This document shows, one piece after another, positions 4,100-29,800 of a DNA stretch of 64,000 bases. Source of the DNA: Octopus vulgaris (taxonomy: Eukaryota). Where the stretch lies: the NCBI GenBank assembly GCA_951406725.2, contig OX597820.1:31992001-32056000 (forward strand), read 5' to 3'. The number at the start of each line of letters is the position of its first letter. Position 1 is the first letter of the stretch. Position numbers and translations under genes: made by a program. Under the pieces are notes generated by a model. It ran no database searches. It was not told the origin of the DNA and saw only the letters and a program-made list of their open reading frames with translations.

Positions 4100-4730
4100 G
4101 CGGCGAGCTGGCAGAAACGTTAGCACGCCGGGCGAAATGCTTAGTGGTATTTCGCCTTCCGCTACGTTCTGAGTTCAAATTCCGCCGAGGTCGACTTTGC
4201 CTTTCATCCTTTCGTGGTCGATAAATAAAGTACCAGCTACGCACTGGTGTCGATCTAATCGACTTAATCCCTTTGTCTGTCCTTGTTTGTCCCCTCTATG
4301 TTTAGCCCCTTGTGGGCAACAAAGAAATATGAGCTGGCAGAATCGTTAGCACGCCGGGTGAAATGCTTAGCGGTATTTCGCCTTCCGCTACGTTCTGAGT
4401 TCAAATTCCGCCGAGGTCGACTTTGCCTTTCATCCTTTCGGGGTTGATTAAATAAGTACCAGTTACGCACTGGGGTCGATGTAATCGACTTAATCTGTTT
4501 GTCTGGTCTTGTTTGTCCTCTCTGTGTTTGTTTGGCCCCTTGTGGGTAGTAAAGAAATAGGTATTTTGCCTGCCACTACGTTCTGAGTTCAAATTCCGCC
4601 GAGAATGACTTTATCCTTCAACCTTTCGGGGTCGATTAAACTAGTACCCCTTACGCACCGGACTCGATGTAACTAATTTATCTCCACCCCAAAAATTTCA
4701 GACCTCGACCCTATAGTAGAAAGGATTATT
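4100..4730 (+). mobile_element. SINE family A, composite of three units
   Basis: Head GGCGGCGAGCTGGCAGAAACGTTAGC, B-box-like GAGTTCAAATTCC, central GTCGACTTTGCCTTTCATCCTTTCGGGGTCGATAAA. The same sequence recurs many times across the window. Confidence 0.85.
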
Positions 4731-4764: not shown

Positions 4765-5545
4765 GGTCACCGCTTGCTAAGGTGGGAGGTGTTGAAACAC
4801 TGCTTCTTTTCCAGGATGGGTCTCCGTTTGCTACGATGTGAGGTGTGAGATGCTGCCCTTGCCCAGGATGGTATCCGCTTGCAAAGGTGGGAAGTGTTGG
4901 AACGCTGCTTACTTTCAAGGTTGGGTCTCCGATCACTACGATTGGATGTGTTGAGATGCTGCTCTAGTCCAGGATGATTTCCGCTTGCTACGATGGAATA
5001 ATTTGAGGCGATGCTCTTCTCCGAGATGATTTCCACTTGCTAAGGTGGGAAGTGTTGAAACACTCCTTGTTTTCTAGGAAGGGTCTCCGCTTACTACGAT
5101 GGGAGATGTTAGATGTAGCTCTTGACCAGGATGGATCTCCGCTTGCTACAATGGGATATGTTGAGATGCTGCTCTTGTCCAAGATGATTTTCGCTTGCTA
5201 AGGTGGGAAGTGTTGAAATGCTACTTGTTTTCCAGGATGCGTCTCCGCTTAACACGATGGGAGATGTCAGATGGGAGATGTTAGATGTAGTTCTTGTCCA
5301 GGGTGGGTCACCGCTTGCTACGATGGGATATATTGAGATTCTGCTAATGTCCAGGATGGTCTCCGCTTGCAAAGGTGGGAAGTGTTGGAACGCTGCTTGC
5401 TTTCCAGGATGGGTCTCCGCTTAACATGATGGGAGATGTTAGATGTAGGTCTTGTCCAGGATGGGTCACCGCTTGCTACGATGGGGCATGTTGAGATGTT
5501 TCTCATGTCCAGCATGGTCTCCGCTTGCTAAAGTGGCAGTGTGTG
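4765..5545. repeat. ~53-bp tandem minisatellite, about 15 units, with a 3-unit higher-order repeat
   Basis: CCAGGATGG-like anchors at 4811, 4863, ~4916, 4969, 5021, ~5074, 5126, 5179, 5232, 5298, 5351, 5404, 5456 and 5509. Confidence 0.9.
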
Positions 5546-12600: not shown

Positions 12601-13420
12601 TTCTAGGCCCTTGTATTTATGTATATACACATACACATACACGTGTATGCTTATGCGCATATTTACATGTACACGCACATTAATCATAGTTTCCCTCGTG
12701 TTTGTTATACTGTAAATATCTCTTTCTCTGACCTGAATCTCTCTATCTTTCCATACACCCATCACCACCGCACCACCCCTACACATATTTATAGCTACTT
12801 ACATACAAGGTCATATATAATGAGTAATATATCTGCGTTTTCAAATAAAAATGATTTAAATTTATGAGTTCTTCTCTGTTGTTTTGTTGTTTTCTGCAAA
12901 TAACGACGCAAATTGTGAAAAAAGTAACAAATTACGAATAGAAAATAAAAAAGCAAGCGCAAAACAATAACAAAAACTATGTCTTTTCTTAAATAATAAT
13001 AATAATAATTAATGGTTTCAAATTTAGGCATAACGCCAGAAATTTTGCGGGGAGGGGCCATTGGGTAACATTGATCTCAGTATTCAACTGGTATTTATTC
13101 TATGGATCCATCCAGAACGGATGAAAGGCGAAGTCGACTTTGGCTGTAATTGAACTTAGGACGTAACGAATCGGAAGAAATCACGTGAAGCAATATGAAT
13201 TGGTAATTATTCGACAAGCTCGTCAACACTGTGCAATAAAAATTCATTATTTTTTTGTCTGCTCACTAAGTGTTATTTTCTATTTGTTGCTATCTAGAAA
13301 TCAAGACAAATAATTACTATACTTTTCAAACTTTGCTTTTGTGACCTGGACATCGATGTTTTAAATCTGACCTATTTTCCATTACATTTCAGACAGATTC
13401 GGCGCTGACTTGCTGAAGCA

Positions 13421-13660
13421 GAAGTTTCTAGAACTTACTATAAGTTTCAAGAATTTTCTAGAAGTTTCATGAACGTTTTAGAAGTTTCAAGAACTTTCTA
13501 GACGTTTTAAGAACTTTCTGTGAAACTTTCTATAAGTTTCAAGAACTTTCTATAATTTTTAAGAACTTTCTATAAGTTTTAAGAATTTTCGAGACGTTCT
13601 AGAACGATCTGGCAACATAGATGGTAGTATAAATACAATGATCATAAGCTCAACAGTTCT
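13421..13660 (+). promoter_or_regulatory. Tandem heat-shock element (GAAnnTTCnn) array followed by a TATA box
   Basis: 10-bp period GAAGTTTCTA/GAATTTTCTA/GAAGTTTCAA/GAACTTTCTA over about 13421-13606, then TATAAATA at 13628-13635 and an Inr-like CAACAGTT near 13651-13658. Confidence 0.6.
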
Positions 13661-13719
13661 GGCTAAGAAGGAATATATTCACAGACACGTCAAAGTTGGG
13701 ACCTACATACTCTAGAAGC

Positions 13720-14239
13720 TACGCCAACACTATGGAATAACAAAAGAGAAAATATGTTATAGGCACATGCCAGAAAAGGTCACAGAAAATGAGAAAGCAA
13801 CCATACTCTGGGATATACCAATACATACAGATAGAGAAATTGAGTTCAATAGGCCGGATATAGTTGTCAGAGGTCACCAAGAAAACAATTCTTTCTAATC
13901 GATGTATCAATACCAACAGATGACAATGTGTCTCTAAAAGAAACGGAGAAACTTTCAGAATACAAAGATCTGGAAATAGAGGTAACTCGAATGTGAAGTC
14001 TAAAAAACAGAAACAATTCCTATCATAGTAGGCACATTAGGTATGATAAAAAAAAAACATCCAGAGAAATACATAACAAAAACATCAGGACTTACAAGTA
14101 TATATAACATACGGAAAATTGCACTACTCGGGACCGCACACATTCTACGTAAAACACTTTCAAAACAGTGAAAATAAGAGCTCCACAATAAACTATAGCA
14201 CATAACCAAGGCACACAGAGCTGTGATCGGTAGTGCAGG

Positions 14240-14297
<58 letters not shown>
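13720..14297 (+). mobile_element. R4/Dong-clade non-LTR retrotransposon 3' fragment (restriction-like endonuclease)
   Basis: Translates EKVTENEKATILWDIPIHTDREIEFNRPDIVV...LIDVSIPTD...EYKDLEIE...ALLGTAHILRKTL and ends in a (TAA)n tail. Confidence 0.88.
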
Positions 14298-15823
14298 CCT
14301 TTCTACTATAGGCACAAGACCTGAAATGTAGTGGGAGGGGACTAATCGATGATATCAACCCCAGTGTTTCACTAGTACTTAATTTATCGACCCCGAAAGG
14401 ATGAAAGGCAAAGTCAACCTAGGCGAAATATGAACTCAGAACGTAGCGCCTGGTGATAATGTAGATCAGTCGCACATTAAAATAAAGTGTTCAGAATGCA
14501 GTGTTACAAAAATAAGCAAAGGTGGAAAGGAGGTAAGAGATTATGCAAAAAAAGAAAAAAGAGACTTGAGTGGCAGATAAGGACGTTATAATATGAACAT
14601 ATTAAAGTTTCATTAAGAATAAATATTAAATACATCAATTAATACAGTATATAATTTTTAAAATAAAAACACTAAGTAGGTGACCTCGCTACTTAAGTAA
14701 GTGCAAGAGTCCACAAACAAGGTTTGGTCCCTGCGTCCAGTGACTCAGCTCCCAGCCACTAAGGCGTCGTGAAGGCCGTGAAGTACGTTTTGCTTTGGCC
14801 ATACTAAGAACAGTATCCAGTGCCTGATGGTTTATTGCCATAGTAAATTATTGTTGTGATTTTCACCCAATAAGCCTAATGTCTGCTTGTCAATGGCTTA
14901 TCTCTTCTTACCTCTTCATACAGCTAGCACTTGATGATTTTTGTCGGTTTTACAGAGGCCCATCATCTTCAATCTCATAACCGTAAGCTTCATGTCGCCT
15001 CATGAAGTGGGGTGATATACTCTTCGTCGTGTATTCATCACCCTTTTTTTTTTTATTCAATTATCTGTCAAATCTTGTTTTGTTTCCTCATTTTATTCTT
15101 GTTCTTCCTTTACTCACTAATTGTCTGCCTTTTTTTCTCAGTGTCCGTTCCTTCCCCGTCGTCGAATTTACATCGGGTGATAATTCTGTGAGAGGGATTG
15201 GGCAATGTCCGCTTCCGGATTCGAGTAAGAGACGTGCTACTCCGCTATGTTTCAAATTCGATTAGTATTAATATACAACCATTAACCAACAGGATCTGTT
15301 TTTTTTTCCCTGTAGCTCATCTCTCTCCCAACTCTCTCTCCCCCCTCTCTCTCTCACATCCTCTGTCATTTCGGCTTTTCGAGGCAGTCTCGTTGCTTGT
15401 GTTTCAGGGCTTACAACAGAATACAGTTCCGGAATAGCCTCGTTGTTTTAAGAGGATATAAGGACTTGCAAATTTCTGAATGATCTCTAGTCCCGATCAC
15501 ATATCATTCCTCATCAACTCCGCACTTGCTACCAGTCCATATTGCGCAATAAATCTGACAATCACTTAGAAGTCAATTTTGTTATTAAAATCATTAATTC
15601 TAATCCTTGTGTTTCATTGATGCATATACTACATTACAACCCATAAACAAATTATGCATCTCATTATGTCTGCTTGTTGTTTTGTCTCGTTCCCATAATG
15701 AAAGCTGATGACAACTACGACATCCTGTTTCACTCAAAGGACCAGACTCTATTCCACACATCGGCCACAACCTCCTTTAATTCGTTCACATAGGACATAC
15801 AAAACCTCTCTCTCTTACAATCT

Positions 15824-24305: not shown

Positions 24306-24386
24306 GCTCCCCAACCACATGGTTCCTGGTTCAGTCCCACTGCATAGCACTTGGGTAAGTCTTGTGAGTGGATTTGGTTGACGGAA

Positions 24387-24885
24387 ATTATAACCTGTGA
24401 TGAAAAGTGGATTCTGTACAATAATGAAAAATGCTCTTCGCAGTGGCTGGACCAAAATAAAGCACCGAAAACCTTCCATAAGCCCGAGCTCTTCAAAAAG
24501 AAGGTTATGGTGACTGTTTGGAGGTGTACTGCTGGACACATCCCCTATAAGCTCTTAAAACCCGGAAAAACCGTTACTGCAGAAGCATATTGCCACAAAA
24601 TTACCGAAATGAAGGAAAACTGCTACTGCTCTGTCCTAGACTGGTCAACAGAAGAGGTCTATTCATTCTTCATGACAATGCTCGACCACATGTTTCACTA
24701 ATGACGCTCCAGAGCGAACTTGGCTACAAAGTTCTTTCTCTCCCAGCTTATTCCCCAGACCTTTCTCTCCTACCGACTACAACTTTTTCAAGCACCTTGA
24801 TGGTTTCGTGCGAGAGAAGGAGTTCAAAAATCAAACCGATGTTGAAAGTGCATTCAAAGAGTTCATCAGCTCCAGGACTCCTGGA
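24387..24885 (+). pseudogene. Mariner (DD34D) transposase catalytic-domain remnant
   Basis: IITCDEKWILYNN...KKVMVTVW...ILHDNARPH...PAYSPDLS across frameshifts. Confidence 0.92.
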
Positions 24886-28953: not shown

Positions 28954-29800
28954 CAGGGTGCGGTGAATAAATAGTCGAAATAAACGAAATTGTCGAAAAT
29001 AAACTAAAATAACACTGTCATCTCATTTTAACATATTTATATTTACCAAAATAACATAAAAATATCTTGAAATACTAAGGAGTAAATTTATTCAATAAAA
29101 TTGCCATGGGCTTCAACCACGGCCTCCAAACTTCGGGAATCTCCTACAATTCTTTTAAACGGTCTCCTTGTTTAATTTGATGAATGCTGTCATAATCCTT
29201 GCCTTAAGTTCACCTCTGGTATTACAATGAGTTTTGTTGGTCTCTCGCTCAACTGCGCCCCACACGTAATAATCAAGGGGGGTTACAGTGCGGCAGCTAG
29301 ATGTTAGTGGTGATGTGGTTGCATAAATTGTCTGACAGCAATGACTAGGTTCTCCTGCTTGTGTGGCATAGTGTAGAGCCCTGTTGCCAAACATAGGGTC
29401 TTCCAGCAGCCACCCTCTTGACACAGGACAGCACTACCTCCTCCAGGCACTTGATGTAGGCCTCCGTGTTGAGTCTGAGGCCGTGTTGGAAAATGAATGT
29501 AGGTATGACGATCAGAACGATCAGAGTGAGGTTTTCGAGCTGCCGTACCTTTGTAATCACCATTAGACTCACCCAACTCTTTCCGAATCCTCTGCACTGT
29601 CCTTGGATTGACACACAAACACTCCAAAATGTTCGTATTGGAGCTTCTGGCGCGGATGGCAAGAAGTACAACATGTCGTTTCCAACTTTCTGAAAGAGTG
29701 AATTGCATCATGGTGATGTTTTTCTCACAGACGGTGTCCAACTGACCCTACTATACTGTGTAGTCGACAAAATCAAAACCAAATAATGCGCATGCGCCAC
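28954..29800 (-). mobile_element. Tc1/mariner superfamily remnant, probably maT (DD37D)
   Basis: Minus-strand pieces PRTVQRIRKEL, LRLNTEAYIKCLEEVV...YVWQQGSTLCHTSRRT and PLDYYVWGAVERETNK, plus TIR-like CAGGGTGCGG at 28954. Confidence 0.8.

Follow-up and report, generated by a model that had tools for sequence, protein, structure and literature searches.

A probable heat-shock-type transposase promoter in a truncated, Merrow-like Chapaev3 transposon of Octopus vulgaris

Results

The array, the TATA box and the LINE junction

The window, by which we mean the whole 64,000-nucleotide stretch of Octopus vulgaris DNA analysed here (contig OX597820.1, positions 31,992,001 to 32,056,000), contains a tandem array of alternating nGAAn and nTTCn pentamers followed by a TATA box, set between the left end of a DNA transposon and a fragment of a LINE. 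The features are listed below in the order in which they lie.

13224..13226, forward strand: position of the left target-site duplication (CAA; TAA or TTA in the family, one change)
13227..13420, forward strand: left end of a Chapaev3 (Merrow-like) element, with the CACTGTG terminus and the upstream promoter region
13421..13609, forward strand: nGAAn/nTTCn array, locally expanded, in three phase blocks (last imperfect pentamer running to 13614)
13610..13627, forward strand: spacer of 18 bp from the last TTC-type unit to the TATA box (a length shared by families A and C, L081 and L082)
13628..13635, forward strand: TATA box TATAAATA of the putative transposase promoter (position matching copies that reach the transposase ATG)
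13654..13659, forward strand: junction, a 6-bp microhomology of transposon and LINE, just before the TCAGTT Inr-like motif
13654..14240, forward strand: 3' part of a high-copy non-LTR retrotransposon (right boundary approximate)

A sequence-only reading of this DNA had described an array of ~190 bp with a 10-bp period, and both the window sequence and a tandem-repeat scan place such an array at 13421-13614. It is not continuous, as had been stated, but falls into three phase blocks at 13421-13518 (20 pentamers, 15 perfect), 13523-13595 (15 pentamers, eight perfect) and 13597-13614 (four pentamers, two perfect), giving 25 perfect and 14 imperfect pentamers among 39. The best phased run comprises 15 perfect pentamers; none of 2000 base shuffles exceeded three, and neither did 265 of 266 window tiles. 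The TATA box was present where it had been reported, and so was the Inr-like sequence behind it, as CAACAGTT at 13651-13658. The array and its TATAAATA are real and far above chance expectation; a coding reading of the array was rejected, given stops in all six frames.

In each of four DNA runs the array and the junction lie within a single, gap-free contig of 305-310 bases that differs from the window at 0-2 positions, which excludes an assembly artefact and confirms the length of the array. These four runs carry three organism labels, although the best-matching one may come from the assembly's own sample; small-share runs (X8-X20) were left out of the evidence. Position 13607 is a T, completing a perfect proximal TTC, and 13464 an A in three of the four runs, while the assembly and run X1 have other letters at both sites. 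The ~190-bp length is unique to this locus: measured to the TATA region, which could be located in 22 of the 38 rows compared, the array spans 203 bp here and 35-92 bp in the 21 other copies. A 20-bp array unit bearing TAA has one exact match in the genome, the window copy itself, which indicates that the expansion was local and copied defective units too. An intact TATAAATA occurs in nine of the 22 copies, the window copy included.

The position of the junction follows from loose ends before 13654 in all four DNA runs, and LINE copies agree with it; beyond this point the 5' leader, the gene and the right end of the transposon are absent. The LINE fragment had been noted in sense orientation ~85 bp past the TATA box, and really begins 18 bp after it, having removed from the window copy the TCAGTT Inr-like motif of intact copies. 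It consists of the zinc-knuckle end and endonuclease region, with stops, and is followed by an (AAT)n tract at 14241-14297 (TRF). The genome holds 2951 candidate copies at 88-91% identity, and an RVT_1 domain in one relative (L168) bears out the earlier R4 label as far as a non-LTR element; Dong-R4 has been reported as active in an octopus (PMC13282606). Two copies of a high-copy short interspersed repeat (12992-13168 and 14277-14448, 71% identical) flank the transposon-LINE composite in the same orientation. Elsewhere in the window lie a mariner-type transposase fragment at 24348-24698 on the forward strand (PF01359, E 1e-19), a weak HTH_23 match below cut-off at 29307-29747 on the reverse strand, a tandem repeat at 4770-5536 with periods of 52, 106 and 158 bp, and a two-copy 226-bp repeat at 4105-4529. 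As had been remarked, no heat-shock gene lies behind the promoter, and Pfam detected no host domain in the 194 stop-free window frames of at least 62 aa, a length that short exons would escape.

The carrier element belongs to Chapaev3

Searching the octopus genome with 13200-13680 yielded 2273 candidates, 40 of which were scored. Among 30 fetched loci, 20 (the window included) run from the left end into the array and are here called type A, and ten run into an unrelated insert (type B). The left end, which contains a long imperfect inverted repeat at ~13253-13377, is 80-87% identical to the best dispersed copies and matches both ends of the near-complete L081. Many fetched copies end in a common right terminus, so that the element reads CACTGTG...CACAGTG. 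Both ends were found in 17 of 48 anchored copies; the window copy has its left end only, and no right end was found in the 64-kb window. Ten of the 17 two-ended copies are bounded on both sides by an identical TWA triplet with A and T outside, and represent eight independent insertions, three of the ten copies being one duplicated insertion; the other seven differ by decay or a doubtful end.

The same ends and the same TWA duplication between A and T form the Chapaev3 signature in PMC4079192, the supplement of which gives Merrow termini nearly identical to those of our copies, the left-end terminus included. Given the CAC/GTG terminal inverted repeats, the 3-bp TWA duplication of other copies and the C(2)C, LH, H(4)H and DDE motifs of the transposase, we assign the array and TATA box to the interior of a Chapaev3 (CMC) DNA transposon close to the Merrow family. 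Helitrons have TC...CTRR ends without terminal inverted repeats, and LTR elements have TG...CA long terminal repeats; both were excluded by the CAC/GTG inverted repeats, the TWA duplications and the DDE transposase. A splice-acceptor reading of ~13370-13393 was likewise set aside, this stretch corresponding by eye to a decayed form of the distal heat-shock element (HSE) region of L082 and L081.

Longer copies lead from the array to a transposase

The HSE phasing and the TATA box are also present in other genomic copies. In three of the first 20 array-bearing copies (L003, L008 and L014) the sequence is continuous from the TATA box to a transposase ATG, and a search with this junction gave 38 genome matches, of which 30 were fetched. 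The order in the longer copies is array, 18-bp spacer, TATA box, Inr-like motif, leader and transposase ATG, the last lying 62-101 bp after the start of the TATA box in copies that keep the gene start. The promoter had been regarded as an orphan; its origin is not an orphan one, since the transposase of the element itself follows directly in longer copies. Three promoter variants were seen, with several decamers in family A, one 3-unit HSE in family C and a diverged array in family D.

The 157-aa transposase core of one long copy has 89 homologues, the best 30 of the 89 at 64-72% identity, with source labels that include sturgeon, sucker, characins, lamprey, stomatopod and frog. CxxC, LH, H(4)H and D-D-E are visible in the alignment of these 30 of 89, and C(2)C is present in the genome's own core fragment. 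A gap after residue ~70 in L081, L082, L202, L204 and L205 marks an intron, and the transposase is thus encoded in two exons, as in Merrow. Pfam assigned no clear family to the protein (zf-AD fell below cut-off), PDB sequences gave nothing below E 0.05, and none of 43 pattern matches in viral contigs was confirmed as a relative; a promoter pattern had no match in a general collection of genome contigs or in the viral contigs. Every long genomic copy examined carries stops or frameshifts, and the family therefore looks extinct in the octopus genome. One long family C copy (L060/L202, G000:C4:92.97 Mb) has its first codons inverted relative to the rest of the transposase. Two database proteins, P0084, annotated as a sturgeon PEX7 isoform with WD40 domains, and P0014 from piranha, with Ig domains, contain the transposase core; they could be either fusions or misannotations.

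The same layout in other sources

A metagenome scan listed 80 of 475 confirmed loci; in 39 of them the hit includes the N-terminus and is preceded by 120 bases or more. Among the matches listed, a perfect 3-unit HSE occurs in three of these 39 (L082, L081 and the distant L085) and is missing from 36. L082 and L081, respectively 96% and 88% identical to the fish-labelled transposase P0005, both have a distal and a proximal HSE, the 18-bp spacer, TATAAATA, and TCAGTT before the ATG. They are 8% apart, hence mutually related and not independent origins, and the putative cross-host evidence consists of these two metagenome contigs. As a control within the octopus genome, 20 of 150 Chapaev3 protein matches were fetched, 16 of which reach the N-terminus: 15 of these 16 distant loci lack a perfect 3-unit HSE within 600 bases, and the remaining one has such an element but no TATA box behind it. 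With L081 and L082 set apart, 51 of the 53 control loci combined lack a perfect 3-unit element, a count to be read with caution as the loci are mostly distant and many are copies of few families, hence non-independent.

A midpoint-rooted FastTree phylogeny of 37 loci and 15 proteins, all of them retained, has a clade (local support 0.85) made up of families A, C and D, the loci L081, L082 and L140, and fish-, lamprey-, frog- and stomatopod-labelled proteins. Between the last TTC and the TATA box there are 18 bp in the window copy and in nine of ten further type A copies (one not scored); in family C the spacing is 18 bp in six of nine copies and 20 bp in two (one not scored). This spacing is constant in four lineages despite differing spacer sequence. 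The GAA/TTC triplets are likewise kept across lineages while the pairs of bases between them vary, with six kinds in GAA-TTC and five in TTC-GAA. In L085 (1-60) and L140 (1-45), an HSE or part of one precedes a TATA-like box at spacers of 8 and 28 bp, equal to 18 bp minus and plus one helical turn; these are two cases on contigs that are both cut short, that of L140 beginning with a partial HSE.

Discussion

A probable stress-responsive transposase promoter, now a relic

Taking at least three in-phase alternating nGAAn units as the mark of an HSF promoter, the window offers a 20-unit block with 15 perfect units, L082 has five units and family C three; in copies that keep the gene start, a TATA box and then a transcription unit follow closely on the HSE, whereas in the window copy the transcription unit of the transposon is gone. 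Heat-shock motifs and a TATA box at the position of the transposase promoter point to a likely stress switch for the transposase. We consider it quite probable that the array and TATA box are the transposase promoter of a Merrow-like Chapaev3 element, likely switched by HSF under stress, and that the truncated copy in the window is a likely inert relic. As predicted from this anatomy, HSF trimers would bind the phased pentamers 18 bp upstream of the TATA box, and transposase mRNA would start ~30 bp after it during heat or other proteotoxic stress, which would tie the mobility of the element to the stress of its host. After a presumed horizontal entry into the octopus lineage and insertion at this locus, slippage may have multiplied a 20-bp array unit, and a microhomology-mediated deletion or the insertion of the LINE would have cut the copy at the Inr. 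It retains the motifs and appears to have nothing of its own left to express. Two points speak against a heat-shock promoter: a palindromic AT-rich tandem array can resemble HSEs, with family C having just a single 3-unit HSE, and the HSE-TATA distance of octopus hsp70 genes differs, as described below.

Exact 24-mers hit the genome nine times for type A and 204 times for type B, which suggests, as a rough estimate, about 100 type A and 2000 type B copies at ~10% divergence; a 25-mer over the TATA box has a single hit. The sequence-only reading had proposed a transposon-carried promoter dispersed through the genome. A transposon-borne HSE and TATA layout with dispersed copies was indeed found, but with so few HSE-bearing copies a genome-wide network of portable promoters is unsupported. 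Type B (L012, L018, L020, L021, L024-L027, L029 and L030) is the commonest non-autonomous subfamily, ~20-fold commoner by exact pattern, and carries an unrelated insert of ~170 bp in place of the HSE/TATA block; L186 combines A and B as a chimera. A single family A insertion is present in ten copies at G000:C29:18.1-29.7 Mb (L035-L042, L045, L046, L208 and L209), their TATA box mutated; each sits inside a larger duplicated block, which in the one pair compared extends over at least 8 kb at 93-95% identity.

Whether the window copy has been co-opted, or is still active, as a heat-inducible promoter or enhancer acting on a LINE-derived non-coding RNA or a distant gene is a question raised by its array, the longest seen, with a 20-unit phased block and an intact TATA box, and by a locus that stands nearly unchanged under three organism labels, with the perfect proximal unit in three of the four DNA runs. 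HSEs in Helitrons do affect neighbouring genes (PMC6927752). We nevertheless hold such a role to be improbable. The expansion copied defective units, the Inr-like motif has been cut away, and the window copy lies ~10% from the family majority (12 mismatches in 120 positions, 6 in 63), like other copies; the adjacent flank is about equally conserved across the runs when clustered differences count as one event, and the Pfam search revealed no host domain, with the reservation on short exons given above. For the non-coding RNA or enhancer role that had been suggested, we found no support in the window copy. Four contig sets presumed to derive from RNA did not cover the array or the junction, which weighs neither for nor against such a role. 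Among 20 type A copies the HSE cores decay like neutral DNA at G/C positions (11.9% divergence, against 12.6% in flanks). The lower divergence at A/T core positions (3.3% against 7.0%) could reflect selection, but alignment sliding or the choice of copies can explain it. Family C copies differ equally at all codon positions (0.08-0.12), as expected under neutral decay.

Subterminal repeats and host heat-shock promoters

Subterminal repeats are common in CMC elements, and the array could be one of these, serving as transposase binding sites or representing a neutral minisatellite that looks like HSEs. The near-palindromic units, changes in number by 10 or 20 bp from copy to copy, and the agreement of G/C core divergence with that of the flanks would fit. 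We find this reading unconvincing, since the array occurs at the left end only, outside the long inverted repeat, and the array-less type B has spread ~20-fold more, which argues that the array is not needed for transposition; the 18 bp to the TATA box are fixed in four lineages, and triplets are kept where the spacer pairs vary.

Seven of the eight intronless hsp70 genes of the octopus genome have HSEs of 4-5 units with the same grammar as the transposon array, as counted by a scorer that misses blocks starting with an imperfect unit. These HSEs lie ~90 bp from their own TATA box and not 18 bp as in the transposon. The eight genes are clustered at G000:C18:43.28-43.36 Mb (L192-L199) and lie on both strands; an internal stop interrupts one of them, and L194 showed no HSE run within 3.8 kb upstream. 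Though hsp70 promoters, the octopus ones included, share the HSE plus TATA layout, it is very improbable that the promoter was captured from a host heat-shock gene of the octopus lineage (Pack-type capture), because the similarity of the transposon to ten hsp70/hsc70 upstream regions is limited to short HSE words (27 bp at best, E 0.004) and because promoter and transposase leader also run collinearly in L081 and L082, which come from other sources, making any capture older than those lineages.

A proposed horizontal origin and kinship with Merrow

Returning to the transposase-promoter reading, the origin of the element can be approached from its coding region. At third positions the distance between family C and L082 is 0.29-0.31, and A and C are separated from one another by about as much as either is from L082. 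Because vertical descent across phyla would seem to call for larger third-position distances, and because transfers of Merrow between lampreys, fishes and a dragonfly have been published, we infer that the element entered the octopus lineage horizontally, and claim no donor or direction.

The octopus elements resemble Merrow/Chapaev3-1_PM (PMC4079192) in their nearly identical CAC...GTG termini, the TWA duplication between A and T, an intron in the transposase gene, the C(2)C, LH, H(4)H and DDE motifs of its product, and the presence of MITE derivatives. The first bases of L082 are the right-end motif of Merrow in reverse complement, and its nearest company includes proteins labelled sturgeon and lamprey. 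The coding regions of the long octopus copies, however, differ from that of L082 by 18-20%, and these copies branch separately; they are therefore better described as sister families than as established members of Merrow. Over the coding region, identity of the decayed octopus copies to L082, itself a presumed member, is 80-82%, and described Merrow members share 87-98% among several and 79-99% overall (PMC4079192). In the text available from that source no mollusc is listed and the word "promoter" does not occur.

Relation to known stress-responsive elements

The closest parallel is seen in the Helitrons of Caenorhabditis, DNA transposons with tandem HSEs before their own transposase, where HSF-1 has been shown to bind and heat to induce both the Rep-Helicase mRNA and neighbouring genes (PMC6927752). 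Those are rolling-circle and not cut-and-paste elements, and their function has been shown experimentally, whereas our case is built from anatomy; the HSE-bearing copies of the octopus are, moreover, few, old and broken. COPIA/ONSEN elements of the Brassicaceae are said to be HSE-bearing LTR retrotransposons. Putative HSEs are also described in the LTRs of Cryptococcus TCN3 and TCN12 (PMC12810828). In such elements, too, host HSF motifs in the promoter couple mobility to heat, the promoter there being an LTR and here that of an internal DDE transposase gene. The available text of PMC12810828 also treats heat-mobilised CMC elements, and makes no link to HSEs.

For Tc1/mariner elements, "blurry" promoters that function independently of the host have been proposed to ease horizontal transfer (PMC6446368; "heat" and "HSE" do not occur in the text available). 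These are AT-rich with weak core motifs, in contrast to the sharp TATA box and conserved activator site described here. The hsp70-type promoters of the octopus genome and of insects (PMC3071340) share phased nGAAn units upstream of a TATA box; they differ in having no homology to ours beyond the motif, in the 18 against ~90 bp, and in that the transposon promoter serves a transposase. The main text of the octopus repeat paper, PMC13282606, mentions neither "heat" nor "promoter". No HSE promoter in Chapaev or Merrow was found in the literature covered, outside the scope of which lay Repbase Reports and most subscription journals. A possible precedent in a cut-and-paste element is mariner Mos1, on which work with heat has been reported. 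The likely novelty is that a transposase promoter of the heat-shock type occurs in a cut-and-paste family that is known to have been transferred across phyla.

Taken alone, the window locus is unremarkable, being the fossilised promoter of a dead transposon. The family to which it is related touches on the question of how a transposon is expressed after landing in a distant host. HSF is among the most conserved inducible systems in eukaryotes, and we offer, as a tentative idea on which we would not insist, that the heat-shock promoter of the Merrow clade acts as a universal ignition key: with HSF conserved across animals, the transposase might be expressed in any stressed host, which would help to explain why the clade has been transferred repeatedly among lampreys, fishes, insects and crustaceans, to which cephalopods would now be added, while the number of HSEs turns over and the TATA spacing stays fixed, perhaps in helical steps (8, 18 and 28 bp). 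If true, an HSF-based promoter would provide a simple answer, distinct from that of the "blurry promoter", and stress-coupled mobility would extend from Helitrons and LTR elements to a cut-and-paste family.
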